Assembly (NCBI GenBank): GCA_037441475.1
Contig: JBBISB010000001.1
Coordinates: forward strand, 126,418 to 158,417
Direction: 5' to 3'
DNA: 32,000 bases
DNA from: Candidatus Iainarchaeum sp.
Lineage (GTDB): Archaea; Iainarchaeota; Iainarchaeia; Iainarchaeales; CSSED10-239
The notes under the pieces were generated by a model. That model did no database searches. It was not told the DNA's origin and saw only the letters and a list, made by a program, of their open reading frames with translations. Positions 9,327 through 25,115 of the stretch are shown here, piece by piece. The translations under genes and the position numbers were made by a program. Each line of letters begins with the position of its first letter. Positions within the stretch are counted from its first letter, which is position 1.

Positions 9327-9704
9327 TTAATCAATTCTAAATAAAACATTTATATTTTTATTAGGGTTATCAACAGTGTTATAAAGTACATAATACCTAC
9401 CCATACCAGGCTCTCTTCTTAATTGTCTTGCAGAACCATCTACAGGTAACCTTAAGATTAAAAGATTATTATTTCTAACTGAAGGATTTAAGACGGATAT
9501 TGATTGAAATTGATATCCAATTAATTGTGAAAAGCTACCTTGTGAAAGCGAAGAAGGTAAGACAGGAGTAATAACATCTCCAGAGTCCCCCTTAATAACC
9601 CCAAAAACAAAAGGAGCAACATAAATATTTGTATCATAATCAACTGCAGAAATGAATGGAGAGAATAATAATAATGCGAAAAATAAATATAGATATCCCT
9701 TCAT
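9327..9704 (-). CDS. small secreted protein (125 aa), function unknown
   Basis: ORF with ATG at 9702-9704 and TAA stop. AAGGTTA motif lies 6 nt upstream. N-terminal signal peptide (YLYLFFALLLFSPFISA|VDY). Follows the only intergenic gap large enough (70 nt) for an internal promoter. Confidence 0.65.
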   Translation of the reverse strand: MKGYLYLFFALLLFSPFISAVDYDTNIYVAPFVFGVIKGDSGDVITPVLPSSLSQGSFSQLIGYQFQSISVLNPSVRNNNLLILRLPVDGSARQLRREPGMGRYYVLYNTVDNPNKNINVLFRID

Positions 9705-9774: not shown

Positions 9775-12700
9775 TTAACTACATTTTAAAGAATCTTGAG
9801 GAGAATCTATAAACTTTTGAGAGAATATCTCTGTTTGGTTATAAAAGAACTCAGAGGAAGAACCATCAGAGGAGTTAACCACACATACTTTGTTCTCTCT
9901 AATCATATTAAAGACGTCAGCGATAGAGGAAACAGCAAGATTACCCTCTCCTAAAGAAACACTAGAAGAATAACTAGTACCATTAGTTGAAAATCTAACA
10001 TTTACGCCTTGACTAGTTCTATTTTCAAGAGAGTATGTCTGCTTTTCAGGAGCATAAAAGATTGTTCTTAAATAGATCTTTCCTGTTCTATTAATCTGTG
10101 GCCAATCTATAAGGAAGGCAAAGGTTGCTCCTTCTGCGCCTGCATATCTATCATTATAACTCATGTTATATATGCTATTACCAGAAAAGTCACAACCTGA
10201 ACCTACGCCTGTCCATCTTAGAAGAGAGGTTAAAGATATAGCATTATCTGAACTATCTTTTAACCTATAGTAGACATTCAAAGGAGTGTTATTTCCTTTA
10301 TCTATACTCATTAAAAGAGGTATTGGAGAGCTTGGTGTTAAAAGAAGATCAATATTATTATACTGATCGTACTTAAGGCTTAATAAATTACCTCTTGTCT
10401 CTATATTTGAATTAATCTTTGAAAGATCATTTGATTTTGTAATATTTATGTTCTTTAAAGCATTTGAACCATAATCAGAGTCTGTTACAGTATAGTCATT
10501 ATCAATTCTTATGGAGTCTCCTGTGTATGAAACACCATACCCTTGTCTATTATACCCTGAGTTTGTTTTTCCAACAAAACCATTAAATGGCATTCTATAG
10601 AAGATACTGTCTGTTTCAGGAGAAGAGATAAACCTTAAAGTAACAAAGGCATTAACATCAACATCATTTCCTTCTTTAAATTTCCAAGAAGCATTATCAA
10701 ATAAGAAATCTATTCTTACTTTATATTTTCCAGGAACATTTATATTAACATTGTTTACTTCATTTGAATATTCTTTAACAAACTTTAAATTATTTTTAAA
10801 AAGTAAAGATAAATAATCATTTGAATATACTGTAGGAGATGCCATTATAGCATAGTTACCTGTACCTGTTCCATCTTTTTTAGATGCAAGTCCACCGTAA
10901 GCTATATCAAAGTCTTTTATAAAACTTTCATTGTATTTATCAGTTATTAAGTATGCATCAAACTCTAAGATATTTTTAAGCTTTATAATATCTTCTTCAG
11001 GCCAACCTGAACCAACAACATTATCAGGGTACATTTGTTTATTAAGCCACATATCTAAATAACTTGTTCCATCATACCTTGCGGTTGTTGCAGGGACAAG
11101 ACATTCTGATGTATTTGTATATTCATAGACAGATAAAGATAACAGAGAATTAAACACACTATGTTGTATAAAATTATTTGAAGAATTATAAACAATGTTT
11201 AAAGAAAGATTATCAGCAATTATTACTGGATTATTTTCAAAGTGATATAGGATTGCTGTAATATCATTATCAACAATTATTATTGGAATAGTCTCTTTAA
11301 TTTCAGAAACCGCTTTGAAAGATCCTAAACTTTCATCAAATATTTCTATTTTTTTAGGAGTATAGTTTGAAAGCTTTAATGATAAGGTACCGTTATCAAC
11401 AACACTATTTCTGTTTTCAAGAGTAACTTTAATTATTAAAGAGTTATTTTCAGTATTTATTCTTACTGAGTTTATACCTGATCTATTTACAGGAATCTCA
11501 TTATCTAATCTTGAAGGCTCTGCAGAAACAACATACCCCCCATTTTTATTTTTGTTATCTATTTGAGAATAACTTATAGGACATTGAACTGTTTTTAAAG
11601 AAATTAATTTTTCAGCTTCATTTATTCTGTTTAAAACAACCTGTGATAATTGTGTAGCATCACAGTATGTTTCACTACATTTAGTAGTATCTTGTAAATT
11701 CCATTTCCAATCAAGAGAGATGTTTGGAACAGCACCCTCTCCTGTCTTTCCTGATCTTCCGGTATCAGTAACACAATCTTGTAAATTAAGATCATAGTTA
11801 GGAGTTTCTTCTGGTTTTGTTAAAAAGAAACCTACTCTGTATTTTCCAAAGTCATCTGAAAATATATGGTTGTCAGAAGAACTATTTTCATTTAATGTAG
11901 GAACAATTGTATTTTCTTTAAAGAAATATTTTCTAGAATCATTATGAACCTGAGAATATAAGGCATCATCTAAGGTGTATTTTAAAGCCTTAATACCTGC
12001 TTGCTCAGGCCATACTTCTTTATTGTTTTTACAAACAAGATAAGCATTATGTTTTAAATTAACTTCATTTCTAGGATACCCTCCTTGACAAGAAATATTA
12101 AATTTATAAGTACCTTCTTCTTCTACAAACACATAATACATTGAACAACCATCATACTTATCAAAGTTGTTTGTTATTGAAACAAACTCTTGATTTGAAG
12201 GGCATTTATTTATTATGTTTGTAAATGTTTTTTTCTTAATTAATTTTCCTTTAACATTTAATTCTGATTTATAGTAATTGATGTTTTTAAGACCAGTTAA
12301 GTCAACAACTGATAAACTTAAATTTTCTGAACTAAGATTATTTAAAGTAATTTCTTTATATTCTGTAGAAAAATAAGATAAATTAAAGTCAGTAGTTAAA
12401 AAATCTTGTTCAACATCATAAATATTTGTAAAAGTTGGAGCTAATGCAGCTATAGCTAATAATGCCCCTCCTCCAATCCAACCCCATACAGGAACTACTA
12501 ATAAAGCACCAACAATACCAATCTCTGCAAGTATAGATGATGCAATTATGCCTATTGATACCCCACTTGTTGCCCATAAAAGAGGATCTGTGCCCTTACT
12601 TGAAGATAATTCATCAAAAGGAATAAAATTAATATTTCTTTGATATGGGTTGTAGTCTTTATTAAAATTTGTAATTGTGAAATCACTTTGACTTTGGTTT

Positions 12701-15700
12701 AAAAAATGCCATAATGTCTTCTCTAAATTATTATTATAAAGTCTTGTAACTTCTGAAGTCTTATTTTCATTAATCTCAATAAAAGGATCTTCCATCCATA
12801 AACCATTTTGGTCCTTTGCATTTATTTTTAAAAGAACAAAAGAAAATGCAAGCTCTCTTTGGAAGTTATTAACAACAGAGACTCTATTGTTTAAGATGTA
12901 AGCACCAGGTGCCTTTGTTGAATCTCTTTTTATAGTCACTGTTTTTTGAGCATCAAGTAAAGAGAAGTTTAAGATATTTCTTTCTTCATCAGTATTTAAG
13001 ATTTTTAAATCTCTACAACCATCATCAAAAGCATCACAAAGATCCATTCTAAAGGTTGCTTTTCCTACACATTTATTATTAATAGTTAAATTATTTTCTT
13101 CAATACCATTTAGAACATAAAGACCACCAGAGTTAATGGTTTTTCCTGTATTGTCAACATATCCAAAACACTCAGTTAAATCCATTAAAGAAAGATTTGC
13201 TTTTAAAATAACTTCTTTTGCTCCATTGTTTACAAAGACAAGACCTTGTTCAGTCTCTACTTGAGCATTAAGATGTATGTTTGTTTTAACTTCTGCAAAC
13301 TTAGTTCCATTAGGGTTAAAGGTTAAGTCTATTTTATAAATTTCCTCAGGTCTCATTTCAGGAATAACAATTCTGTAATAGTTTTCAGATAACTGTATCT
13401 GACTTGCAGAAGCAGGCCCTATAAGCTTAAAGAAATAAACACCAAATCTATCTCCTTGTGAAGTTATCTTAGCTTGAACATTCTTAACAGCTATTGGTGT
13501 TTTTCCTTCCTTTGAAAGACAAGTGTTAGTTATTGTTAAAGTTGTTGTTTGAGGAGAACCTGCAATTACTGTTGTCCAATCACTTACACCTTGAGTAACT
13601 ATTACACAATTATCCTCTAAAATTCCACTTCCAACAGAAAGTTTAACATTTACAGGAATATCAAACAAGTATTCATTATTGTTTAAAAGATATTTACCTG
13701 TAACTACACCTAAGATATCAACTGAAACTGGGTGGCTTCTTGCAGACTGGGAAGGAGCAAACTTAATTACAAGTTCCTTTGAGGAGTTTGCTGGTATTAT
13801 AAAACCTTCTTGAGAGGAGGTTATTTGGTTATTAAGATAATTTACAGTTTGTTCTAAGTTTAATAAATCTGATTTATTAAAAGAAACATCATGTGTGTTA
13901 AATTGTTTTAAAGAAATATCATATGCTGTTTTATTTTCTAAAACTAAAGTATATAACTCTCCATTTAAGTTTGTCTTATGGATAGAAGCTTGAAGAGGAG
14001 AAGTTGAAGTTAATAGAGAACCTTTGCTCTTAACATCTAAAATGTTTTTAGTTATTGAAAACTCTAAAGGAGTTGCATAATATTTAGACTTAATAGCCTC
14101 TATTATAAATGTCTCTCCTGTTCTTAAAGAAGGAAGAGAAATGTTTACAACACCCTTTTCGTTTGTTGTTTTACCAGTTGAAACAGTTAAAGTATCGTTA
14201 TTTACTTTTTGTAAAATATTAATATTTACACCCTCTAAAAAATTACCTTTAGAGTCCTTTACAGTAACAGTTAAAGTGAAAGGAGTTCCAGGAACAATGT
14301 TTTGAGGCTCGTAAGAAACACTCATCTTTTCAAGTTCAGAGACAACAAAGTTAATAGGTAAAGAATAAACTTCTTGTTGAGCAGAAATAACTCTGTTAAC
14401 CAACTTAGATTGTCCAAGATTTAAAGGAATTACTTCTAAAGAATAATCAATGTTTGAAAATGCAGAAAAGTTATCTTTTAAAAGTTCAGGAGCATTAAAA
14501 GGAATATTAAAGTTAGTTTCTCCTAAAGCTATATTACCAGATGATACAAACTCTCCAGATAAAGAATACTTCTTTATATTTATCATAGTTGCAGGAGTGT
14601 TATCACTCTTTAAATTTCTTGCAGAAACTCTTGCTTGAGAAAAGTTATTTGAAGAGGAGTTTGAAATTGTATATTCTAAAATATAATCTGAGTTAACCTG
14701 CATTGGAACTAATCTATTACTTCCAATATCATATCTTAAGCCCTCTAAAACATCCACATACTGACCAGAGAAACAAAAGGTGTTATTACATAAACTTGTA
14801 GCATCTACAAAGTATTGTAATTGTGAATATTGGGTATTCATAAAGTTAATAGAATTAATAGATGAAGTATAAAACAAAGATACCTTATCGTTTGTCTTAG
14901 CGTTCTTAATCCTTATAGGTATGGTTATTTCATGAACAGAGGCAGGATACCCTACTACCTGAACATTAACAAGCTTAGATTCTAAAAAGTTTCCTGAAAC
15001 TGAGAATGGTTCTTTTTCATAGTAAGTAGAAACACCTAAAGAACTGCTTTGTGGCATTATAAAAACAATATCTTCAGAAACATCAACCTTTGAACCTGCT
15101 CTAAATGCAAAATTAAAGCTAGAGGAGGAAGATGGCATTATTACCTTGTACTTAAGATAGAAAACTTCATTGTTCTTTAAAGACTCAACCTTATTTTCAG
15201 AAGTATTAAAAAGACCAAAATATTCAACAGAGACTTCATCGCCCACAAGTGCTCTTTCTAAAATAATTTCTTTAGTAACTGTTTTGTTCTTATAGATTCT
15301 AAAAAGCTCTGTAAAGTATGGAAGATAACCTGAACTTTCTATTTTAACAAAAACTCTTTTATCAGCCTTAACTTGGTTTTCTAAAAAACCATTAGCTGAG
15401 ACTAAGGAAGTTCCTAAAACTTCTAAACTTTCATAGTAAAAGGTTGCTTGAGCATCTGAGATTGAATCTCCTAGTTTGTTTTTAACATTTAACTTAATTG
15501 TTCCTTTACCTATAACTATTGGTAAAGTTATGTTTGTGTCTTCTGGTGGTGCATTATGGTATACTGAAGAAATTTCTTCTAAAAAGTCATTCTTTACTTT
15601 AATAGTAAAATTAAGATCAGGAATATTTTCAAAAGTTGAAATTCCATTTTCATCTGAAATTGAAAAACTAAATCTAGGGTCTATATACTGCCCTTGACTA

Positions 15701-17055
15701 TCGTATATCCATGTCTTGATATTCATCATTGGTTTTAAGTCTTCATCTTGTATCTTTACAACAATCTTTGAAACATTACTTATTGTTATTTTTTCTAAAT
15801 TAAAAATATATGTGCTTTGTGTTTCTAAAACAGGTAAAATATTACCTGTAATGTATCCTTCTGCTTCTGCTTTTAAAGAATAGTCTTTAGAAGTGTCTAT
15901 ATTAAAGATAAAGCCTTCATGTAAGTTTCTTTCTTCAATATTTTGGTTACCATCTAAAAGTAAGGTTACCTTAGGTGAAAAGGTTTCATCTAAGACTTCA
16001 CCAGTAGCTTTGTCTTTTATAAAAACTGTTATTTGTTTAATATTTATTTCTTGATTTGTATCAGGATTAATGATTGTTCCTGTGCTTGTATCAGCCATGA
16101 TTATCATAGCTTCAGCTTTTTTATTTTTTATAACAATTACTTGTGTTTGGTTTTGAAGATATCTATTTTGAATATCACTTGCTTTTACAATATATTCTCC
16201 TGCTTCAACAGAATTAAAGAAACCAACACCAAAGTTAGTTTGCACTGTTTTAATAGCAGTAACAGGATCATTAATTGAGAACAACTTTAAAGTGATTGAT
16301 TCTTCAATAAATAAATCTCCTGAAAGAACAGAAACTGAGATTGAACCAGTATCTCTTACTTCAACAAAAGGATTAATAGAAAATGTACTTTGTGTTGCTG
16401 GAATAGATATGCTTCTTTCATTATATCTATCACCAACAATTGTTGCTGATAATTTTTGACAGTTTGAAGGAACTCTAATAGCTAAAGTTCCATCTGTGGT
16501 GGATGCAGAGGAAGGCGTTATAATCTCTTGATTATCACAAACAATTGTAATATTAAGTTCTTCTTTAATCTTTAGGTTTGTTAAAGCATCTTCAAAGTAA
16601 ACTGTTTTTAAAAAATCTTTTTGAATGTTTAAAATAGGTATTATAAAGTTTAATGAAGGGGATGAAAAAGTTATTTCTTTTTCTGTATATTCATAACCTA
16701 CAGAATCAATTATTAAAAGATATAGTTTCTTTCTGTCTAAGGAAAGAGTTAAAGATCCATTCTGATTTGTCCTATAACTATTTAATGTTCCTTCTGATAA
16801 GTTTCTTATCTTGAAATCAAAGTTATCTAAAACATTATTTTCAGAATCAGCAAGCCTAATGGTTATATCAACCATATCTGCTCTTGAAGCTAATGAAGAA
16901 CCTAAAATAAAGTATAGAACAACTAATATTATTAATAAAAATAAAAAAAAAGAAGTTAAAGGAAATTTCTTGTCTAAAGGTCCTGTAATTTTTTTTATTG
17001 GTATTCTGTTATCTATCTTTGTTAAAATGTTTTGCCAGGTTTCTTTAAATGACAT
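9775..17055 (-). CDS. giant surface protein, paralog D (2426 aa): fused architecture with N-terminal anchor, beta-sandwich array, Cys-bracketed domains, internal double-TM hairpin and the long C-terminal module
   Basis: Uninterrupted 7281-nt ORF with TAA stop. AGAGGGA motif lies 6 nt upstream. TM at aa 33-55. CarboxypepD_reg-like repeats (e.g. LTVTVKDSKGNFLEGVNINIL). aa 1-1490 are collinear with the 1704-aa ORF. aa 1543-2426 are collinear with the 964-aa ORF (LDWKW, YCDATQLS, PGKYKV, YRMPFNG..RQGYGV, RWTGVGSGCDFSG, YLRTIFYAP). Confidence 0.92.
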   Translation of the reverse strand: MSFKETWQNILTKIDNRIPIKKITGPLDKKFPLTSFFLFLLIILVVLYFILGSSLASRADMVDITIRLADSENNVLDNFDFKIRNLSEGTLNSYRTNQNGSLTLSLDRKKLYLLIIDSVGYEYTEKEITFSSPSLNFIIPILNIQKDFLKTVYFEDALTNLKIKEELNITIVCDNQEIITPSSASTTDGTLAIRVPSNCQKLSATIVGDRYNERSISIPATQSTFSINPFVEVRDTGSISVSVLSGDLFIEESITLKLFSINDPVTAIKTVQTNFGVGFFNSVEAGEYIVKASDIQNRYLQNQTQVIVIKNKKAEAMIIMADTSTGTIINPDTNQEINIKQITVFIKDKATGEVLDETFSPKVTLLLDGNQNIEERNLHEGFIFNIDTSKDYSLKAEAEGYITGNILPVLETQSTYIFNLEKITISNVSKIVVKIQDEDLKPMMNIKTWIYDSQGQYIDPRFSFSISDENGISTFENIPDLNFTIKVKNDFLEEISSVYHNAPPEDTNITLPIVIGKGTIKLNVKNKLGDSISDAQATFYYESLEVLGTSLVSANGFLENQVKADKRVFVKIESSGYLPYFTELFRIYKNKTVTKEIILERALVGDEVSVEYFGLFNTSENKVESLKNNEVFYLKYKVIMPSSSSSFNFAFRAGSKVDVSEDIVFIMPQSSSLGVSTYYEKEPFSVSGNFLESKLVNVQVVGYPASVHEITIPIRIKNAKTNDKVSLFYTSSINSINFMNTQYSQLQYFVDATSLCNNTFCFSGQYVDVLEGLRYDIGSNRLVPMQVNSDYILEYTISNSSSNNFSQARVSARNLKSDNTPATMINIKKYSLSGEFVSSGNIALGETNFNIPFNAPELLKDNFSAFSNIDYSLEVIPLNLGQSKLVNRVISAQQEVYSLPINFVVSELEKMSVSYEPQNIVPGTPFTLTVTVKDSKGNFLEGVNINILQKVNNDTLTVSTGKTTNEKGVVNISLPSLRTGETFIIEAIKSKYYATPLEFSITKNILDVKSKGSLLTSTSPLQASIHKTNLNGELYTLVLENKTAYDISLKQFNTHDVSFNKSDLLNLEQTVNYLNNQITSSQEGFIIPANSSKELVIKFAPSQSARSHPVSVDILGVVTGKYLLNNNEYLFDIPVNVKLSVGSGILEDNCVIVTQGVSDWTTVIAGSPQTTTLTITNTCLSKEGKTPIAVKNVQAKITSQGDRFGVYFFKLIGPASASQIQLSENYYRIVIPEMRPEEIYKIDLTFNPNGTKFAEVKTNIHLNAQVETEQGLVFVNNGAKEVILKANLSLMDLTECFGYVDNTGKTINSGGLYVLNGIEENNLTINNKCVGKATFRMDLCDAFDDGCRDLKILNTDEERNILNFSLLDAQKTVTIKRDSTKAPGAYILNNRVSVVNNFQRELAFSFVLLKINAKDQNGLWMEDPFIEINENKTSEVTRLYNNNLEKTLWHFLNQSQSDFTITNFNKDYNPYQRNINFIPFDELSSSKGTDPLLWATSGVSIGIIASSILAEIGIVGALLVVPVWGWIGGGALLAIAALAPTFTNIYDVEQDFLTTDFNLSYFSTEYKEITLNNLSSENLSLSVVDLTGLKNINYYKSELNVKGKLIKKKTFTNIINKCPSNQEFVSITNNFDKYDGCSMYYVFVEEEGTYKFNISCQGGYPRNEVNLKHNAYLVCKNNKEVWPEQAGIKALKYTLDDALYSQVHNDSRKYFFKENTIVPTLNENSSSDNHIFSDDFGKYRVGFFLTKPEETPNYDLNLQDCVTDTGRSGKTGEGAVPNISLDWKWNLQDTTKCSETYCDATQLSQVVLNRINEAEKLISLKTVQCPISYSQIDNKNKNGGYVVSAEPSRLDNEIPVNRSGINSVRINTENNSLIIKVTLENRNSVVDNGTLSLKLSNYTPKKIEIFDESLGSFKAVSEIKETIPIIIVDNDITAILYHFENNPVIIADNLSLNIVYNSSNNFIQHSVFNSLLSLSVYEYTNTSECLVPATTARYDGTSYLDMWLNKQMYPDNVVGSGWPEEDIIKLKNILEFDAYLITDKYNESFIKDFDIAYGGLASKKDGTGTGNYAIMASPTVYSNDYLSLLFKNNLKFVKEYSNEVNNVNINVPGKYKVRIDFLFDNASWKFKEGNDVDVNAFVTLRFISSPETDSIFYRMPFNGFVGKTNSGYNRQGYGVSYTGDSIRIDNDYTVTDSDYGSNALKNINITKSNDLSKINSNIETRGNLLSLKYDQYNNIDLLLTPSSPIPLLMSIDKGNNTPLNVYYRLKDSSDNAISLTSLLRWTGVGSGCDFSGNSIYNMSYNDRYAGAEGATFAFLIDWPQINRTGKIYLRTIFYAPEKQTYSLENRTSQGVNVRFSTNGTSYSSSVSLGEGNLAVSSIADVFNMIRENKVCVVNSSDGSSSEFFYNQTEIFSQKFIDSPQDSLKCS
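9778..12429 (-). other. shared C-terminal module, long form, fused (aa 1543-2426 of the 2426-aa ORF)
   Basis: Same ordered motif set as the 964-aa ORF. YCDATQ is encoded near 11651-11672 and MPFNG near 10579-10600. Confidence 0.8.
12430..12582 (-). other. internal Gly/Ala-rich hydrophobic hairpin, two predicted TM helices (aa 1492-1542 of the 2426-aa ORF)
   Basis: LLWATSGVSIGIIASSILAEIGIVGALLVVPVWGWIGGGALLAIAALAPTF is 51 residues with one charged residue. It has small-xxx-small spacing, and a Pro/Trp/Gly-rich centre is the likely turn. Confidence 0.7.
15256..16875 (-). repeat. protein-level tandem array of CarboxypepD_reg/prealbumin-like beta-sandwich repeats (paralog D, aa ~61-600)
   Basis: DITIRLADSENNVLDNFDFKIRN..NQNGSLTLSL; ITVFIKDKATGEVLDE; IVVKIQDEDLKPMMNIKTWIYD..DENGISTFENI; IKLNVKNKLGDSISDAQATFYY. 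Boundaries are approximate. Confidence 0.7.
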
Positions 17056-17061
17056 TTAATA

Positions 17062-17068
17062 TCCCTCT
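17062..17068 (-). promoter_or_regulatory. Shine-Dalgarno-like site (AGAGGGA) for the 2426-aa ORF
   Basis: Plus-strand tccctct lies 6 nt from the ATG at 17053-17055, inside the 17-nt gap after the 964-aa ORF. This spacing suggests translational coupling. Confidence 0.5.
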
Positions 17069-17072
17069 TTAT

Positions 17073-19967
17073 TTAATTAACAATACATGCTCCTCTTGCA
17101 TTTATCCAGCTATTTTGAGAATCTGAAGATAAATCATTACTGAATAATGGTTCTGATACTGCAATTGGGTTGTAATATACTTTTAAGTTGTTTGCACTAT
17201 AATCAATACATGCTTTCTTATCTTTTACAAGAGCAAAGATTTCTGATACAAACTTAATATCATTTCCTAAAATATTCTTAAGTTCAACTGTCTTTGATCC
17301 ATTTTTTTCTCTTGTATAGAATAATGCATCATCGTCATAAGCATCTTGGTATAATACACTTACACCATTACCGCTCTTGAAATTACTTGGTGTGTAAAAG
17401 ACTGTTCTTAAATAAACATCTCCTCTTCTTGTGATGTTTCTATTTTCCCATTCAACACCGTATGAAACTCCTTGACTTGATGTTGTTGGTGCAAGTCTTG
17501 AAGATAATGCTGCAATGTCTGGTCTGTAAAGGTATACTTCTTGAACAGAAATACCTGTAAAGTCTAAACAATTTCCAACACCTGTCCATGGAACTAAGCT
17601 TCCAGGAGTACTTGCAGGAGATCCACCTAATGCTTGTGGTGCACCTATATCAAGCTTATAGAAACTATAAGCATTGTTAGCTTGGTTTGAAACTTTTAAA
17701 ACAACTGGTGTTGCTCTAGAAGGAACAAAAACTAACCTTGGATTTGTTTTTGTACTTGATAAAGAAATGTCTAAAAGCATTCCTCTTGTTGAACTGTTGT
17801 TTATAAAAGAAAAGTCAGTTGCTTCTTTTCCATATTCCTTAACACTTATAGTATTAACTGTATTTGATTGAGTAAAAGGCTCAGTTCTTAAATATTCATT
17901 AGTTTGAAGTTGTGAGATTGTTACAATATCTCCTGTAAAGTCAACACCGTAACCTTGTCTTGCGTTCTCTGAATCAATACCAACAATACCATTAAATGGC
18001 ATGTAGTAAAGAGGAGAATCTCTTTCAGGTGCAAGTTCTCTAGTTAAGATAACTTCAACTTTTCCAGAAACTTCTCCTGTTGTTTTATTAAATAAATTCC
18101 ATTCATCATCAAATGTTACTTTTAATAAAACATTGTATCTTCCAGGTCCTTGAAGCATTAATCTACCAGGCTCTGAATCAAAGGAAGATTTAAATATTAA
18201 GTTATCTGTTGTAAAGTATTTATAGTAGCTATCCTTGTAGTAATCAGGGGCAGCTGTTATTGTGAATCTATAGTATCTATCAAAATCAGCTTTAAAGTCA
18301 TTAGAATAACCATCTTTCATTAAATAAGATCTAAACTCTACTAAAGAAGTATCTATCTTGTTATTCTTTGAATAAAGGTTTATGTTTTGAGATGTTTTTT
18401 CTAAGTTACATAAATCTGAGTTTGGAGTAAATTCATTTATTAAAATATTATCTGCTGTTGTAACCTCTAATGATTTATAAGGCTCTATTAAAGTTAAGAT
18501 AGCTTGTACCTTAAACTTTGTTTCATCATCTAAGATTAAACCAACATTAAACTTTTCAGATCCTGAGAATTTTTTGTTTGTAAAGTCAATAACATTTATT
18601 GTTATAAGTTTAGATGTTTGTAAAACATTGTCTTTGAAAACAATTATGTTAAGGTCACCGTATTTTGGAGTTGCTGCATTCTTATCACTTGAATTAAAGG
18701 ATCCTTTTAAAGTATAATCTACTGTTACAAAGGAAGCTTCATAATTTGAGTTTAATTGAGTTATACCTAAATTATTATTTTCTGAAATTAAGCTTTGAGT
18801 TATACCTGGTGTAGGACATGTAAATGAACCTTTGTTGTTTTGTACAAATGTTTCTATATCTTTTAATTTATTTAAAACTTCAATTGAGAATTGTGTTGCA
18901 TCACAGTAAATTGATTGTTTGTCTTTTTGACCTGTTAAGTCAGCATCACACCAGTTCTTTCTTGAAACACTCATTCCTGAGATTGTTTCTGCGTTGTCTA
19001 TACTGTATGTCCAGTCAAGAGCTATTCTTGGAAGAGCTTCTGTTCCTGTACTTCCTAAAAGAGTAGTACCATCTTCAGCTATACAGTTAACTTGATCAAG
19101 TTCAATTCCTGTAATATCGTCTCTTACATAAGAGTTAAAGATTAATTTAAATGGTTCTAAAACAACTTCTTGTTTTTTATTTTCATCAATTTTGTTTAGA
19201 AGTTTTTTATTTGAACCGTCTAAGTATTTTGAAATTTTAATTTGACTTGCACCTGTAAAGAAAGGTATCAACATTGAATAGCCACCCCAGATATCTTCAA
19301 AATCAAGTTCATAATCTACTTTTCCTGTATATGTTGACTTAGGATATCTTATTACAAAGTTTCTATATTCATATGCATTTTCAATAGTTTTGTTTGTATC
19401 TTCAAATAATATTTCTCTTTTTTGTATGTCTTTAGGTTGATTGTTTGAATCTAAAAGAGTTACTAGTTTTGTTTTTTCTGCAAGTCTGAAAAGAGGTGAG
19501 TTTTTACCATCATCTATTTCAGATAGATTTTTGGTGTTTATAAATCTTGCATCTAAGATGTTTTCATCTGTTAAAAGCATGTTATTTTTAACTATTTTTT
19601 GATCTATTCTATTATCTAAAAGGTAATTATCATATGGCTCAAAATAATCTATTTTATCAGTAGATATATTTACTTTGTCTCTGTCTAAGGCAAAATCAAT
19701 CTCTACTTTTGAAAGTTGAGAAAAGGTATTAATAGCTGAAAAAGCACCTGCTAGGACACCGTGCACAATTGGGTTTAGACCAAAGACTTTGTTTAAAAGT
19801 GTTTCAGCACCAGAAAACAATTGTTCAATAAGTACATTTCCTGCTTGGCTTTTGGCTTCACTAGCTAATTTATTAGCAGAGACAGGCATGCTTACAAATG
19901 AAAGCATAAGTGCCATTATTAAAAAAATTCCTAAAAATTTTATTTTATTATTTTTTATTTTTTCCAT
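17073..19967 (-). CDS. secreted stand-alone copy of the long C-terminal module (964 aa), paralog C
   Basis: 2895-nt ORF with TAA stop. AGGTG motif lies 9 nt upstream. Signal peptide (FLGIFLIMALMLSFVSMPVSA|NK). Motifs: LDWTY, YCDATQFS, GPGRYNV, YYMPFNG..RQGYGV, PWTGVGNCLDFTG, YLRTVFYTP, ACIDYS...GACIVN. Confidence 0.9.
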   Translation of the reverse strand: MEKIKNNKIKFLGIFLIMALMLSFVSMPVSANKLASEAKSQAGNVLIEQLFSGAETLLNKVFGLNPIVHGVLAGAFSAINTFSQLSKVEIDFALDRDKVNISTDKIDYFEPYDNYLLDNRIDQKIVKNNMLLTDENILDARFINTKNLSEIDDGKNSPLFRLAEKTKLVTLLDSNNQPKDIQKREILFEDTNKTIENAYEYRNFVIRYPKSTYTGKVDYELDFEDIWGGYSMLIPFFTGASQIKISKYLDGSNKKLLNKIDENKKQEVVLEPFKLIFNSYVRDDITGIELDQVNCIAEDGTTLLGSTGTEALPRIALDWTYSIDNAETISGMSVSRKNWCDADLTGQKDKQSIYCDATQFSIEVLNKLKDIETFVQNNKGSFTCPTPGITQSLISENNNLGITQLNSNYEASFVTVDYTLKGSFNSSDKNAATPKYGDLNIIVFKDNVLQTSKLITINVIDFTNKKFSGSEKFNVGLILDDETKFKVQAILTLIEPYKSLEVTTADNILINEFTPNSDLCNLEKTSQNINLYSKNNKIDTSLVEFRSYLMKDGYSNDFKADFDRYYRFTITAAPDYYKDSYYKYFTTDNLIFKSSFDSEPGRLMLQGPGRYNVLLKVTFDDEWNLFNKTTGEVSGKVEVILTRELAPERDSPLYYMPFNGIVGIDSENARQGYGVDFTGDIVTISQLQTNEYLRTEPFTQSNTVNTISVKEYGKEATDFSFINNSSTRGMLLDISLSSTKTNPRLVFVPSRATPVVLKVSNQANNAYSFYKLDIGAPQALGGSPASTPGSLVPWTGVGNCLDFTGISVQEVYLYRPDIAALSSRLAPTTSSQGVSYGVEWENRNITRRGDVYLRTVFYTPSNFKSGNGVSVLYQDAYDDDALFYTREKNGSKTVELKNILGNDIKFVSEIFALVKDKKACIDYSANNLKVYYNPIAVSEPLFSNDLSSDSQNSWINARGACIVN
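17076..19874 (-). other. shared C-terminal module, long form, stand-alone (mature 964-aa protein)
   Basis: Collinear with aa 1543-2426 of the 2426-aa ORF by eye alignment. Shared ordered motifs: LDW, YCDATQ, PG.Y.V, MPFNG(x9-10)RQGYGV, WTGVG.C.F.G, YLRT.FY.P, and C(x40-50)C at the C-terminus. Confidence 0.8.
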
Positions 19968-19976
19968 ATTTTTTTA

Positions 19977-19981
19977 CACCT
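19977..19981 (-). promoter_or_regulatory. Shine-Dalgarno-like site (AGGTG) for the 964-aa ORF
   Basis: Plus-strand cacct lies 9 nt from the ATG at 19965-19967. Confidence 0.55.
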
Positions 19982-20000
19982 TTTTTTAAAAATATAAAAA

Positions 20001-23000
20001 TTATTTAATTATTTGTATAGGGATATAACCACTTACATTAAACTCAGATAAGTTTTGAACAAGATATTGTTGTGTACTACCACTTATTCTTAATATTTTT
20101 TTACTTCCTGCTTTTTCACCTAAATAAATTGCAAAATAGCCCATAGCTCCAGAAGAACTTGGGGAAGTGTAACCTATAAAGTCACCAGGAGATAAATTAT
20201 TTTCAGCGTAAGGACTACAGGTTTCATAATTACAAATAAAATTAACAACTGTAATTTTATTTGTTTTTTGAATACCTTCTAATGCAGCTAACTTATTATA
20301 CATTTCAATACCAGAACCATAGTTAGTTAAGTTAGGAGAAGTTCCATTCAAGGAATCTAAATTAATATAATTATTTGTAACACTAGAATCTTCAGTTTCA
20401 GTAGTGGTTGCAGTTCCAGTTCCAGGAGTGGTTGCAGATCCAAGAGTAGTAATTGTAGAAGTGCCTTTTACAGCAGCTTCAAGAGCAGTTGTTGCCTCTT
20501 TTATTTTTTTCTTATCTCCACCAGCAATTGCTGCTTTTAAAGCAGTTGCAGCAGTAATAACATCAGAATCATTATTTCCCTCTACACTTTTTAATAATTT
20601 ATTTGCCTTATCTTCTGCTAAAGCAAATATCTTACCTTGTAAAAAAGCAGAGATAGTTGTAGTGTATATTCCTTCTCTTAAGAAAGCAACAAAGGCCATC
20701 TTCCATTTAGCATTTTCTTTTACAGTAAACTGTCCTGTTATCTCTTGACTATAACAAAGGTTAATAATGTTTGTAACATCGTAAGCTATAGCACTCATAG
20801 AAAGACCAGTACTCTCAGATGTCTCTGATCTATAAAGATCAAACTCATATCTTTCAAGATCTAAACAATAGTCAGTAGGTCTAACATATACCTTAACTCT
20901 TTTTATTAAATCTTCATCTTGTCTTGATTCTTTCATAGCACCGTAAACGTTTAAAACATAAGCACCAGGTGTTGCGCCCATAGATGATACTGTAACAGCT
21001 TGACTTGTACCTGTAGAAGATACCTCAATATCTCCTCTAGGATCAACTATAAGACCAATACAATCATCACATGAAAGTCTGTATACCATGCTTGTAGAGC
21101 ATGCTTTATTTTCAATAGTGAAAGAGTCCCCCATTTGTCCAACATTTAAAGTGTTCTTTGAGAATACAACACAGTCTTTTAAATTTGTAACATCAATCTC
21201 AAAAGCGATTTCAGAAACTATTTCTTGAGATCCATTACCAGTATTGTTAATAGATCTAAATTGTACCTTACCTTTAACAGTTCCTTTCATTCTTCCTATA
21301 GGTTCATACTTTAAAACAACTGGAAGAGATCTATCTCTATCAAAAGTATCAAGTAAATTTCTATAGTTACCATGTGTAAGTTCAACAGATCTATTATCTA
21401 TACTTACTATAAACTTACCTTGTGGATTAGATTCAAATAATACTCTTGCTTCAAGACCATTTGATAAAGGCATGTTTGTTCCTTTTATAGAACATGTGTT
21501 TGCAATTATAAAGTTTGTTTGTACAGGTTTATTTATAGAAACATCTTTCCATAAACCATTTGAAATTGTTAAACAATTTGAATTATCAATCATACCATCA
21601 AAGCCAATATTTACTTTAATAGGAAGTTCTGTTTGCCATTTATTATCTCCACTTGAAAGAACAATGTAAAGTGTTGAAGATAAATTTTGAAGTTCTCTAA
21701 TAGTTTCAGCTCTTGGGTTTAAACTTATTGTTAAAGGTATAACTTTTGAAGCATCTTTGTTGTCAGGTAAACTTGATACTGTATCGTATCCTTTTATAAC
21801 AATTCCAACACTTTCAAGAAGAGAATTATTAATTCTTGCTAAGTCAACAACCTCTAAACCATTTCCTTTAACAACTAACTCTTCAATAGTTAAGTCTATT
21901 GGAAAAATATTATTAATTGTAAAGTTTTCTGTTTTTTGTTTTTCATTAAAGATATTTAATGAATATGCTAAGTTTCTTGGTATTATATTAAATAATCTAT
22001 CAGTAGCTCTAAGCTCTATTAAAGTAGTTTCATACTCTGGAGCAGAAACATAAACATATATAACATCATTTGGACCTTGAGCAGGGATGTTTGAAACATT
22101 TAACTCTCCTGTTGAGTTAGGTATTGCAAGAGGTCCTTTTATTGTATCTTTAAATCTATCTTTAATAGTTACAGTAGCATCTTTAACAGGAACTGAAGAT
22201 TTTGAATCTTTTTGTTTTACTAAAAGATTAAAGTTTTTACCTGAAGGTATAACTTGTGGATCAGCTGTAACAATTAATGTTTTATCAGAAGCAACATCTA
22301 TGAATAATTGATTAATAAATCTTACTCTTTGATCTGATATAAACTTAATAGATAAGTTTCTTGTACCTTTTAATTTAGGAGTGAAAATAATTTCACCAGT
22401 TACCTTTTGTTTAGATAACAATTGTGTTATTGAAATATCAAAAGTGTATGAAGATGGATTATTCTGTGTGAATATCTCTCCATTTGGTTTAATGATCTTA
22501 ATAGTTTTAATATCAAGACCTTCATCAATATTCTCTAAAATGAATCTTGAGGATAAATATCTTGTTTCATTTGAGTTATTGATTAATGTAAAAGTATACT
22601 TATACTCTTTGTTTGGTTTTGCACCAAAACTATCAGTAACATCGTATCTTAAATCTTCTAAAACATCAACCATTGTTGAAGAGAAACAAAACTCTGTAGA
22701 ACAGAAAAGTTCACTTCCCACACCGTATGTTATATGGTCATAAACATCATAATATTCTATTTTATCATTACTTCCTAAATATTGGCTAAATGTTTCATAC
22801 TCTTCATCTTGGTTTAAACCAAAACCAAGATTATATATTTTTAGTTCTTCACCAAAGACAGCTGTATCTTTAACTGAAATTGTTGCTTCTATTTCATAGT
22901 TGTTATAGAAACCAATAGAACCTGTATAATCAATAGGCCATTCCTTTAATGTTGCTTTAGCCCATTTAAAATTTCCTTCAGTTAAGCTATCTTGATCTTT

Positions 23001-25115
23001 AAAGCCTTCACTTTCATGTGGAGGGTTTAAGTTATATTGAGTGTATTTTTGTATACTATCTAAATATGGAACATCTAGATGTTTAATAAATAAAGAATCA
23101 TTTTCAATCATTGAAGTTGAACCTGTTCTTAATAAGAAACCAATATCTTCAAATCTATCATCTCCAGTTCTGTTTTGAGGAACTAAAAGATTATATCTTA
23201 CTTGATAATCCATTCCAGCCTTTAAATTATCTTTAACTTCTAAACCATCTTTAAAGATACCAATAAACTCCATTCTAGGTTTTGATGTAGAACTGTTCTT
23301 TGGATATAAAGTAACTGTTAATTTTTCTTGAGTATCTGCTCTTAAAGGAACAAATCTTGATTGTGTTTTTCCATAAAAGTCATTTAAGTAATCTGTAGCA
23401 ACAACATAATAATCATTACCAGCATCAACAAAGAATTCAATTATTCCTTGTGAGTTTGTAAGATTACTTCTAAGTGGTATTGCAGGAGTAAAGCTGTAGT
23501 AACTATATCTATCGTATAAATCTATTCTTGCATCTGGAACTGGCATGCCATCTTTATCAACAACAGAGACAAGTAAAGAACCTTCTGAAATACCCATTGG
23601 TATTATAATTTCTCCAGAAAGATCTGGAAATTTAACATTAAATTCAAATGATGAAGATTCTCCAGTGACACTTCCCTTAATAGCTTTAGCTATATATCTT
23701 CCTGATGAAATATTTATTGTAGCATTTCCATCATAGTTTGTTACAAATGGTTTATAGTCTGTTAAAAAGCCAGTCTCTGCATCATATAAAACTACTTTTG
23801 CAAACTTAAAGCCTTTTCCATCCCAAGTTGTAACTTTAACTTTTAATGAAGCTAAAGTACCAGGAGTTATTAATGTTAATGGTATTACTATAGGTGTTGA
23901 AGGCATTTCTGCTTTTGCAGTTACGACTTGTCTTTTTATTAAATAACCTTCAGCATCAACAACTACATTATAGTCTTTTATTTCAGGGACAGTGAAAATT
24001 ACATATCCATTATCATCTGAAATTTTTGTTTCAATAGTATTATTTGAAATTGTTTTTAAACTTACTTCAGCATCTTTAACAGCACCAACTATTGGAGCTG
24101 TTACTCTTACATAGACATAACCTTTAACATCTGTTGTAAGTGTTTCTGTTTTAGTTGTATTTTCTGATAAATAATATGGTTTTGATAAAGTTCCGTATAA
24201 AGGAACTGTTCTTTGATCTGAATAGTTTGCTGTATATTCTCCTTTAGAAACTTCTTCGATTGTACATGTTCCGGTAGATATAGTTATACATGAACCAGCA
24301 GAACCGTAGTTGTTTGTTAAAGTTACCTTAATATTTGATAAGCCTTCACCTAAGGAGTTTTTAACATTAAAAACAACCTTAAATTTATCTCCTTCAAAAT
24401 TAAAGTTTGTAGGTATAAGTGCAATTCTTCCTGTTGAGTTTGTAATAGGAATATCATACTGTGAAACATACCCTGTAAAAGATATTGAAGAGATTGCTAA
24501 TCTACATTCAGGGAAAGCATCAACAGTTATTTGACCATTTGAAAAATTCATTGGTGCAGGAGCCATGCTTCCATTTAAACATTTAAAAGCAACTGAACCT
24601 GATCTATCAATAATTTGATTTGTTTCAGAGTTTACTGCATTAAAGGAATAAGTAACTGTAAGAGGTGTTACTTTAGTTGGTTCTAAAGCTAAAGGAATTA
24701 TCTCAAAATTTTCTTTAGATAAAATCTCTGTTGTGAAATTATTATAATTCTCTTCAGAAATATCTATTTTATAAAAGGAATTTTTAGGAACTTTTGATTT
24801 TTCAGTAAGACCATTTTCTGAAGTTTTAAGATATAGGTTACCTTCTGTAGTTGAAACTATTAAAGATATATTTTCAAGCAAAGCACCTGTATCTGCATCC
24901 ATAACCTTAAACTGGATATCAACTCCATCTCTTACTCCACCTGAAGGTAAAAGTAAAAAGATAAGTCCAGAAATTATAATTAAGATTAAAAGAAGAAATA
25001 AAACAAATGAAGGCATAACCTTATCTATCTTATCTGTGATCTTGTAAAGACCAGTTCTTTCAACAAAACTATAGTATCTATCTTCTAGATTGTAATAAAA
25101 CTTTTTAAGTCCCAT
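20001..25115 (-). CDS. giant N-terminally anchored surface protein, paralog B (1704 aa): anchor, beta-sandwich array, Cys-bracketed domains and a unique Ala/Thr-rich tail; lacks the shared C-terminal module
   Basis: 5115-nt ORF with TAA stop. AAGAGGTT motif lies 7 nt upstream. TM at aa 36-56. At least 6 CarboxypepD_reg-like repeats (SLLVSVVDKDGMPVPDARIDLYD; YVYVRVTAPIVGAVKDAEVSL). Central motifs are shared with paralogs (FCSTEFCFSSTMVDVLEDLRYD, IIANTCSIKG, TIENKAC, TPGAYVLN). Confidence 0.9.
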   Translation of the reverse strand: MGLKKFYYNLEDRYYSFVERTGLYKITDKIDKVMPSFVLFLLLILIIISGLIFLLLPSGGVRDGVDIQFKVMDADTGALLENISLIVSTTEGNLYLKTSENGLTEKSKVPKNSFYKIDISEENYNNFTTEILSKENFEIIPLALEPTKVTPLTVTYSFNAVNSETNQIIDRSGSVAFKCLNGSMAPAPMNFSNGQITVDAFPECRLAISSISFTGYVSQYDIPITNSTGRIALIPTNFNFEGDKFKVVFNVKNSLGEGLSNIKVTLTNNYGSAGSCITISTGTCTIEEVSKGEYTANYSDQRTVPLYGTLSKPYYLSENTTKTETLTTDVKGYVYVRVTAPIVGAVKDAEVSLKTISNNTIETKISDDNGYVIFTVPEIKDYNVVVDAEGYLIKRQVVTAKAEMPSTPIVIPLTLITPGTLASLKVKVTTWDGKGFKFAKVVLYDAETGFLTDYKPFVTNYDGNATINISSGRYIAKAIKGSVTGESSSFEFNVKFPDLSGEIIIPMGISEGSLLVSVVDKDGMPVPDARIDLYDRYSYYSFTPAIPLRSNLTNSQGIIEFFVDAGNDYYVVATDYLNDFYGKTQSRFVPLRADTQEKLTVTLYPKNSSTSKPRMEFIGIFKDGLEVKDNLKAGMDYQVRYNLLVPQNRTGDDRFEDIGFLLRTGSTSMIENDSLFIKHLDVPYLDSIQKYTQYNLNPPHESEGFKDQDSLTEGNFKWAKATLKEWPIDYTGSIGFYNNYEIEATISVKDTAVFGEELKIYNLGFGLNQDEEYETFSQYLGSNDKIEYYDVYDHITYGVGSELFCSTEFCFSSTMVDVLEDLRYDVTDSFGAKPNKEYKYTFTLINNSNETRYLSSRFILENIDEGLDIKTIKIIKPNGEIFTQNNPSSYTFDISITQLLSKQKVTGEIIFTPKLKGTRNLSIKFISDQRVRFINQLFIDVASDKTLIVTADPQVIPSGKNFNLLVKQKDSKSSVPVKDATVTIKDRFKDTIKGPLAIPNSTGELNVSNIPAQGPNDVIYVYVSAPEYETTLIELRATDRLFNIIPRNLAYSLNIFNEKQKTENFTINNIFPIDLTIEELVVKGNGLEVVDLARINNSLLESVGIVIKGYDTVSSLPDNKDASKVIPLTISLNPRAETIRELQNLSSTLYIVLSSGDNKWQTELPIKVNIGFDGMIDNSNCLTISNGLWKDVSINKPVQTNFIIANTCSIKGTNMPLSNGLEARVLFESNPQGKFIVSIDNRSVELTHGNYRNLLDTFDRDRSLPVVLKYEPIGRMKGTVKGKVQFRSINNTGNGSQEIVSEIAFEIDVTNLKDCVVFSKNTLNVGQMGDSFTIENKACSTSMVYRLSCDDCIGLIVDPRGDIEVSSTGTSQAVTVSSMGATPGAYVLNVYGAMKESRQDEDLIKRVKVYVRPTDYCLDLERYEFDLYRSETSESTGLSMSAIAYDVTNIINLCYSQEITGQFTVKENAKWKMAFVAFLREGIYTTTISAFLQGKIFALAEDKANKLLKSVEGNNDSDVITAATALKAAIAGGDKKKIKEATTALEAAVKGTSTITTLGSATTPGTGTATTTETEDSSVTNNYINLDSLNGTSPNLTNYGSGIEMYNKLAALEGIQKTNKITVVNFICNYETCSPYAENNLSPGDFIGYTSPSSSGAMGYFAIYLGEKAGSKKILRISGSTQQYLVQNLSEFNVSGYIPIQIIK
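23301..24923 (-). repeat. protein-level tandem array of CarboxypepD_reg/prealbumin-like beta-sandwich repeats (paralog B, aa ~65-605)
   Basis: DIQFKVMDADTGALLENISLIV; FKVVFNVKNSLGEGLSNIKVTL; YVYVRVTAPIVGAVKDAEVSLK..DDNGYVIFTV; LKVKVTTWDGKGFKFAKVVLYD..NYDGNATINI; LLVSVVDKDGMPVPDARIDLYD..NSQGIIEFFV. Boundaries are approximate. Confidence 0.75.

Follow-up and report, generated by a model that had tools for sequence, protein, structure and literature searches.

Two neighbouring genes in the DNA analysed here (the window, 32,000 nucleotides (nt) of contig JBBISB010000001.1), which comes from a relative of Candidatus (Ca.) Forterrea in the phylum Iainarchaeota/Diapherotrites of the DPANN archaea, most likely descend from one gene for a giant surface protein that was cut in two. 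The upstream gene, g1704, encodes 1704 amino acids (aa) and would have kept the membrane anchor. The downstream gene, g964, encodes 964 aa and would have become a separately exported half. The intact gene that follows them, g2426 (2426 aa), would be an old paralogue. We call the gene that was split the A gene and its intact paralogue the B gene. We put the probability that such a fission took place in a Forterrea-like ancestor, leaving an anchored half and an exported half beside an old B paralogue, at about 80%.

DPANN archaea are believed to need direct contact with a host, and to our knowledge the surface proteins that mediate contact in Iainarchaeota are almost unknown. The genome nearest to that of the window is Ca. 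Forterrea multitransposorum, which carries the same locus with identical gene order and a g964 orthologue that is 74% identical. In its accessible part, the Ca. Forterrea genome paper notes this cluster of giant membrane-anchored proteins and suggests that it serves cell-cell interaction; that part makes no mention of a split gene, family structure, A/B paralogy, junction helices or conserved gene order around the A and B genes. The present analysis takes the cluster from a passing mention in one genome paper to a defined family with a three-gene order and a domain plan.

Two genes collinear with one

All long open reading frames (ORFs) of the window, whose sequence is 29% G+C, lie on the minus strand, and the positions below are window positions on that strand unless stated otherwise. 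In the direction of transcription the genes are g2204, g1704, g964, g2426, g125, g816, g2129 and g120. The g1704 ORF (20001..25115) encodes the N-half of the split A-type protein, the g964 ORF (17073..19967) its C-half, and the g2426 ORF (9775..17055) the intact, probably B-type, paralogue. At the fission point a spacer of 33 nt (19968..20000) contains a GGTG ribosome-binding site and two additional in-frame TAA codons, and 17 nt separate g964 from g2426; g964 and g2426 are each preceded by their own purine-rich ribosome-binding site (GGTG or GAGGG). These ORFs and spacers lie where a preliminary description of the window had put them.

Members of the family appear to share one plan. A short cytoplasmic motif and a single transmembrane anchor would be followed by about 1400 aa of extracellular beta-sandwich repeats (the N-module), a junction of two conserved helices with a linker between them, and a family-specific, beta-rich, Cys-containing C-module of about 690 aa. 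Canonical members are best read as type-II-anchored giant surface proteins. The N-terminal motif has the form ..YY.LEDRYY..IDK...P..K.TD.IDK..PSF and runs into the anchor, and an N-terminal transmembrane segment is present in 100 of 103 fused representatives. In g1704 the motif (MGLKKFYYNLEDRYY...KITDKIDKVMPSF) and the anchor (aa 38-56, Kyte-Doolittle hydropathy 3.44) occupy 24948..25115; the same motif opens fused proteins of other Iainarchaeota, and g2426 and g2129 carry diverged forms of it.

The preliminary description had proposed that g1704 is collinear with the N-terminal 60% or so of g2426, and g964 with g2426 aa 1543-2426. BLASTP aligns g2426 aa 349-1439 with g1704 aa 337-1438 (22% identity, E 2e-27) and g2426 aa 1755-2392 with g964 aa 289-921 (24% identity, E 5e-37). 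Profile-profile comparison with hhalign extends the first match to g2426 aa 16-1397 against the whole N-module of g1704 (aa 19-1397, 20925..25061; E 8.5e-64 over 1277 aligned columns), as had been proposed. The second match extends to g2426 aa 1737-2415 (9811..11847) against g964 aa 271-942 (17142..19157; E 9e-50 by hhalign against the fused family), so that the proposed collinearity stands from aa 1737 onward and has no statistical support in the stretch upstream of it.

The shared regions are recognizable by eye as well. The landmark motifs on which the by-eye alignment had relied all occur in the translations, and g1704 carries the N-module landmarks FCFS..VDVLE.LRYD, NC...NTC, PGAY and RYEFD.Y. 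The beta-rich C-core with its conserved cysteines is marked in both g964 and g2426 by YCDATQ, DGYS.DF..DFD, MPFNG.VG...RQGYG, WTG.G.C.DF.G, YG.EW, FYTP and ACI.

Age and direction of the split

The order N-half (1600-1870 aa), C-half (962-1025 aa), fused B protein (2447-2505 aa) recurs in at least 11 species-representative genomes and on several further metagenome contigs, in some of which extra genes are inserted, and the split can be followed down to 37% identity. In 8 further species genomes the C-half has an N-half orthologue of 1603-1867 aa directly upstream of it. For g964 we found 15 orthologue clusters (962-1018 aa, identity down to 39%), and a repeat homologue search with a combined C-module alignment returned the same 15 proteins and nothing beyond them.

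Because the spacer is 33 nt long, g964 is in frame with g1704, and one could take the boundary for an assembly or frameshift artefact, for a recent pseudogenizing nonsense mutation, or for a gap bridged by read-through or protein trans-splicing. We give these readings almost no credence. Three in-frame stops in total, a separate ribosome-binding site and a signal peptide of its own set the C-half apart, and the same split was assembled independently in all of the species genomes just counted. Spacers between the halves differ among these genomes in length and frame (37, 47, 83 nt and others), which excludes read-through or a single nonsense mutation; together with the conserved split and the extra TAA codons they exclude the artefact that the preliminary description had named as a danger. 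Trans-splicing is opposed by the absence of any intein or Hint domain in a Pfam scan, by the lack of conservation of the upstream tails, and by the signal peptide with which the downstream product opens, none of which fits a split intein.

The preliminary description had left it open whether a fission or a fusion was preserved here. A survey of homologous loci found the fused form to be the rule in the phylum and the split to be one nested clade, which decides for fission. Species-representative genomes, including Iainarchaeum and AR10, contain 37 complete fused ORFs (2118-3012 aa) with the C-module and the g1704-type N-terminal motif; among the matches listed, 109 of 168 family proteins reach at least 1500 aa, and fused forms also occur in a metagenome-assembled genome (MAG) labelled Micrarchaeota. 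Moreover, both halves point to the same fused relative, P0042, which g1704 matches over P0042 aa 5-1419 (28% identity, E 4e-129) and g964 over aa 1890-2568 (28% identity, E 7e-66); identity to g2426 is 22-24%. Across the fused representatives, g1704 aa 3-1428 gives E-values down to the same 4e-129. In trees of the N-part and of the C-core, the split N-halves (9) and C-halves (23) are each monophyletic with no fused member inside, and both have the same fused sister group, made up of representatives with long junctions.

Synteny outside the split clade gives the same direction. Two complete family ORFs stand in tandem at 24 outgroup loci. The g1704 N-part matches the first of them better than the second in all 24, and the g964 C-core does so in 23. 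The second, of 2230-2700 aa, follows about 10-100 nt downstream in most loci and up to about 1.5 kb downstream in two, and the ORF upstream of the first matches g2204 best. This synteny points to an ancestral order X - A - B, with g2204 as the X-type gene, in which A became g1704 and g964 in the Forterrea-like clade. Thus, on comparative grounds, the reconstructed order in Iainarchaeota is X - A - B, three giant paralogues, and as a rule A and B are each encoded by one gene of 2200-3000 aa. The side-by-side arrangement of split and fused genes could by itself suggest the reverse course, an ancestral split from which the 2426-aa type was made by gene fusion. That course is highly improbable, given the fused proteins found throughout Iainarchaeota, the nesting of the split forms as one clade in both trees, and the single fused ORF that outgroups have where g1704 and g964 sit. 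The comparative evidence thus indicates an old, selected fission, neither an artefact nor a fusion.

A fission-like outcome could also arise if two tandem A duplicates had degenerated complementarily, the C-module being lost from one copy and the N-module from the other. The cluster does evolve by tandem duplication, and module rearrangements occur in it, as in the 1490-aa protein with a g2204 C-terminal module described below. Yet the two halves share a fused sister group and have diverged in step (N-half against C-half identities of 40% and 38%, 64% and 63%, and 46% and 45% in three orthologue pairs), the 33-nt spacer holds no remnants of lost modules, and intermediates with two complete A copies or decayed modules were not seen in a dense sample of genomes. 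We therefore consider complementary loss improbable, and its outcome would be functionally indistinguishable from fission.

Other breaks occur in the family. Three stand-alone C-module proteins of 760-987 aa (P0082, P0102 and P0134) carry signal peptides of the usual kind. The nearest fused protein differs from one of the three to the next, and each may therefore go back to a fission of its own at this junction. In an Iainarchaeum MAG a family gene is broken elsewhere (L075 4271-11261), into 920 aa with the anchor and 1385 aa with the C-core. A further apparent split, L022, was rejected because its break is a 200-N assembly gap.

g2426 as the probable B-type paralogue

The preliminary description had read the locus as a fission or fusion event preserved side by side. 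The ORFs are indeed two halves of one ancestral architecture, but g1704/g964 and g2426 are not two states of one gene. The shared affinity of both halves to P0042, together with an A-B tandem that predates the fission, makes the neighbours two ancient paralogues, one of which was later split. On this sequence evidence g2426 is not an unsplit version of the A gene but most likely the older B-type paralogue. It occupies the second (B) tandem position and clusters with hairpin-bearing representatives in the neighbour-joining C-core tree; its full-length orthologues (2392-2492 aa, identity down to 36%) are all fused.

The hydrophobic hairpin that had been noticed at the break point of g2426 is there: two transmembrane-like, Gly/Ala-rich helices at aa 1492-1545 (12421..12582), with Kyte-Doolittle values of up to 2.42 in a 19-residue window. 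An AlphaFold model of g2426 aa 1300-2426 places the helices at aa 1492-1512 and 1524-1542 with predicted local distance difference test (pLDDT) scores of 30-43; the junction as a whole scores 30-45, and the hairpin shows no confident packing. The hairpin is found in most g2426 orthologues and is typical of short-junction members of the family. It is missing from P0019, a 2392-aa orthologue (59% identical) in which no segment reaches a Kyte-Doolittle value of 1.6, and is thus dispensable in at least one B-type protein.

The break within the junction linker

Fused A-type proteins have a fixed order after the RYEFD..N.C motif: helix 1, a linker, helix 2, about 200 aa, and the C-core. Helix 1 consists of W..A.K.G followed by hydrophobic residues and lies at the same place as in g1704. 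The linker spans 100-900 aa and is hypervariable, with low-complexity, Ser/Thr/Pro-rich or Cys-rich sequence, and helix 2 is Gly-rich (G.NP[WI]V..G..GG). In the split pair, g1704 ends in helix 1 and a variable tail that takes the position of the variable linker of fused A-type proteins, and in g964 a signal peptide and a short variable stretch precede helix 2, which matches the second junction helix of fused proteins in position and motif. A small hidden Markov model (HMM) of helix 2 found weak matches in fused A-type junctions, one of them at E<1e-3, and at least 12 of the 19 matches lie 100-250 aa upstream of the C-core. Thus, judged by these alignments and motifs, the break lies in the hypervariable linker between two conserved helices.

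The character of the helices changes with the length of the junction. In a set of 45 fused representatives, maximal hydrophobicity tends to fall as the junction lengthens (Spearman -0.68, p 2e-7). Hairpins of transmembrane grade, as in g2426, belong to short junctions of 168-260 aa, and the helices of long junctions are weakly hydrophobic. Helices 1 and 2 of the split clade, with Kyte-Doolittle values of 0.8-1.8, resemble those of the A type. Because they are weakly hydrophobic, neither is likely to span the membrane, and the inferred topology accordingly leaves the g1704 tail and all of mature g964 most likely extracellular.

Taken together, these data suggest the following course. An ancestor shared by the whole Forterrea-like clade would have had its A gene cut within the long, hypervariable linker of the junction. 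On the upstream side, g1704 would retain the anchor and the repeat stalk together with junction helix 1 and a tail that evolves fast. On the downstream side, g964 would have gained its own Sec-type signal peptide and ribosome-binding site, and its mature product would begin with a short variable stretch, followed by junction helix 2 and the C-module. The neighbouring g2426, probably the B-type paralogue, has a compact junction that forms the transmembrane-like hairpin.

The anchored half and the exported half

Junction helix 1 of g1704 (aa 1471-1499, WKMAFVAFLREGIYTTTISAFLQGKIFA, 20619..20705) was delimited by orthologue alignments. Its motif, WKMAF..FLR[DE]G, lies just upstream of the tail and is kept in every N-half orthologue, and the helix has Kyte-Doolittle values of 0.8-1.3 across the split clade with a conserved R-[DE]-G. 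The tail itself (aa 1500-1704, 20004..20618) comprises an Ala/Lys-rich helix, noted earlier and evident in the translation, and a genome-specific C-terminal part of about 110 aa. Tails of orthologues cannot be aligned with one another; they consist of (GDA)n repeats, (ATEPS)n repeats, Cys-rich modules or other sequences, and the g1704 tail has no match in the Protein Data Bank (PDB) or Pfam.

The last 110 aa or so of g1704 (aa ~1590-1704, 20004-20340, NNYINLDS...IPIQIIK) resemble a small folded domain, which is not present in the aligned orthologues and has no Pfam or PDB match. An NlpC/P60-like domain, suspected at this end from 'PGDFIGY...YFAIYLGE', was rejected, being without Pfam or PDB support and missing from the orthologues. 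Two plus-strand ORFs with GTG starts lie antisense within g1704 (20404-20748 and 22381-22743; 114 and 120 aa) and are most likely chance ORFs.

The g964 protein opens, as had been described, with a signal peptide followed by helices. The signal peptide (aa 1-31, 19875..19967) has an n-region, an h-region and a predicted cleavage site VSA|N, and 22 of the 23 C-half proteins among the matches listed have an equivalent signal peptide, with n-region, h-region and a small-x-small site. Helix 2 follows near the predicted mature N-terminus (aa 57-85, LLNKVFGLNPIVHGVLAGAFSAINTFSQL, 19713..19799); in the orthologue alignment of its motif FGLNPIVHG.LAGAFS, P66, G70, S77 and L85 are invariant, and its Kyte-Doolittle values range from 1.06 to 1.83. 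Hydropathy analysis revealed no transmembrane segment after the signal peptide.

In an AlphaFold model, the g964 core (aa 290-964) forms a series of beta-rich domains with pLDDT mostly 70-90. Scans of g964 returned no Pfam domain, and NCBIfam and PDB sequence searches with the C-module were empty. A Foldseek search of the model against the PDB and BFVD gave no global fold match (template-modelling scores of at most 0.11) and only generic beta-sandwich or CARDB-like local matches.

Weighing the fission and the fate of the halves

Several observations weigh against the fission account or loosen parts of it. The correspondence of helix 1 rests on a motif recognized by eye, as a small HMM of it gave no significant matches. 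The first 270 aa of g964 correspond to g2426 aa 1472-1737 by position alone, with near-zero alignment confidence, and this stretch falls within the first 290 aa that AlphaFold models poorly (pLDDT <50). The B-type assignment of g2426 draws on position, hairpin and the neighbour-joining C-core tree, and BLAST scores are ambiguous: in about half of the 24 outgroup loci the second ORF is the better match to the g2426 C-core, and on a strict three-way criterion the count is 11 of the 24. The N-part and C-core trees are neighbour-joining trees with midpoint rooting only. In one relative, L011 (C-half 43% identical, N-half 1623 aa), the halves are separated by two genes whose products, of 279 and 1329 aa, each have a hydrophobic N-terminus (L011 15-12871), so adjacency of the halves is not absolute. 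Finally, co-transcription, signal-peptide cleavage and re-association are steps that we infer.

With these reservations, we favour a model in which the halves are made from one operon, exported separately and reassembled non-covalently on the cell surface. The preliminary description had proposed docking through the helical ends of both proteins, with the Ala/Lys-rich tail of g1704 as one partner. That proposal is partly plausible. The tail is a poor candidate for a specific docking element, as its sequence differs among orthologues. Rather, the most plausible sites of reassembly would be the two junction helices and the conserved stretch that follows helix 2. Surface location, size, repeats, conserved cysteines and the suggestion of the Forterrea authors point to cell-surface or host-contact roles, which we presume the assembly to serve.

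The main competitor to reassembly, which we hold to be possible though unlikely, is that the halves are functionally independent, g1704 being a self-sufficient anchored stalk or adhesin and g964 being freely secreted or bound elsewhere, for example to a paralogue or the host surface. A hypervariable tail is what one would expect of a free distal end, g964 has a cleavable-type signal peptide and no anchor, the halves are separated in L011, and no interface between them could be derived from the AlphaFold models. However, the halves co-occur wherever upstream sequence is present and are adjacent everywhere except in L011, they diverge at similar rates, and the split clade has conserved both junction helices and the roughly 200 aa that follow helix 2. 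On balance, re-association of the halves is a plausible reading of the sequences.

A more far-reaching possibility, and in our estimation a very doubtful one, is that the junction helices are membrane-active and the split pair is a counterpart, made by cutting the gene, of attachment or fusion glycoproteins that are cleaved into two subunits, and that it bridges the DPANN symbiont to its host. In such a scheme the B-type helices would form a hairpin within the membrane of the archaeon itself and tether the C-module there. The A-type helices, especially those of the split pair, would stay outside the membrane, joined to each other like a latch. On contact, the exported C-half, with its Gly/Ala-rich helix near the mature N-terminus, could insert into the host membrane. 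That helix is the only feature of g964 that resembles a fusion peptide. The protein has neither the transmembrane segment nor the heptad repeats of class I viral-type fusion glycoproteins or fusexins, and its template-modelling scores against viral structures are at most 0.09.

Comparison with known systems

The S-layer (surface layer) of Sulfolobales is built from SlaA and SlaB, an anchored stalk protein with a non-covalently bound outer protein. Such two-component archaeal S-layers are mentioned in 10.1101/2021.04.28.441871. As an analogy of working principle only, g1704 and g964 would likewise combine a membrane-anchored stalk with a separately exported outer subunit encoded side by side. 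In contrast to SlaA/SlaB, the g1704 anchor is an N-terminal transmembrane segment and the two genes stem from one ancestral gene. We found no sequence or fold similarity of g1704 or g964 to SlaA/SlaB, and no Pfam or NCBIfam match to S-layer domains (for example PF05123, S_layer_N of Micrarchaeota and Methanococcales) at E<=0.1. The Micrarchaeota S-layer protein was accordingly set aside as a relative, since it belongs to a different family (PF05123).

Viral class I envelope proteins, Notch (at its S1 site), adhesion-GPCR GAIN domains and SEA-domain mucins are cleaved into two subunits that stay non-covalently associated. The split pair resembles these surface glycoproteins in that one ancestral polypeptide has become two extracellular chains, the downstream one starting near a Gly/Ala-rich hydrophobic helix. 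Unlike them, g1704/g964 is cut at the level of the gene and not by proteolysis, and the chain encoded downstream lacks a membrane anchor. The Giant1-5 cluster of Apilactobacillus kunkeei, in the accessible part of its description (PMC12863079), shares with the present locus a run of several giant surface-protein genes that takes up about 5-6% of the small genome of a host-associated microbe; that cluster is bacterial and has, as far as this part goes, different domain content and no established homology to the one in Iainarchaeota.

That a gene is split and one part gains a signal peptide is a well-known process, and the conceptual surprise is therefore modest. The locus is a well-documented new example of this process in a poorly known, probably important family of DPANN surface proteins. 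The fission amounts to a natural experiment in which the junction linker was broken without loss of the genes, which suggests that the N- and C-modules can be separated as units. For work on structure and binding, the two halves are smaller pieces that can be expressed.

The family and the rest of the cluster

A profile search with the C-module retrieved 700 clusters (at 50% identity) with E<=1e-3. The best 150 of these are mostly proteins of 2200-3250 aa with the module at the C-terminus, and the one coherent group of stand-alone signal-peptide proteins among the best matches is the set nearest g964. In the N-modules Pfam recognizes generic beta-sandwich domains only (CarboxypepD_reg, Big_1 and MG4). 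CarboxypepD_reg scores 54.6 bits in the g1704 N-module (cut-off 32.3) and 68.7 bits in g2204, and Big_1 scores 41 bits in g2426 (cut-off 34.9); the CarboxypepD_reg and Big_1 matches are generic fold assignments and not a function.

The X-type paralogue g2204 (25156..32000) lies upstream of the split pair. Its listed ORF covers 25156-31770, its frame, which includes a transmembrane segment, is open to the window edge, and its true length on the same contig is 2321 aa. It combines the family N-module (BLAST E 1e-24 to 1e-27 against the N-modules of g1704 and g2426) with a different C-terminal part in place of the C-core. In a distant relative (L001) two inserted genes separate the C-half from the B gene: the first encodes a 1490-aa protein in which the last 450 aa or so of g2204 recur (L001 13090-17562, E 4e-21), the second a protein of 634 aa. 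This recurrence may be another case of module reshuffling.

A further divergent paralogue, g2129 (454..6843), lies downstream of the B gene. It has an additional hydrophilic N-terminal extension of about 120 aa, followed by the family motif (aa 119-160) and a transmembrane segment (aa 157-175), and only its last 300 aa or so resemble the C-core (BLAST E 2e-11 against the g2426 C-terminus).

The three remaining genes, g125, g816 and g120, gave no family matches. Directly after g2426 come g125 (9327-9704), which encodes a small secreted protein, and g816 (6859-9309), which encodes a signal-peptide protein with Cys-rich ends and Gly/Asn-rich repeats of the GNGG type. Several relatives have a pair of this kind (about 124 aa and about 760-816 aa) after the B gene, which makes the pair part of the conserved cluster. 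The last gene of the window, g120 (44-406), encodes a small protein with two to three hydrophobic segments.

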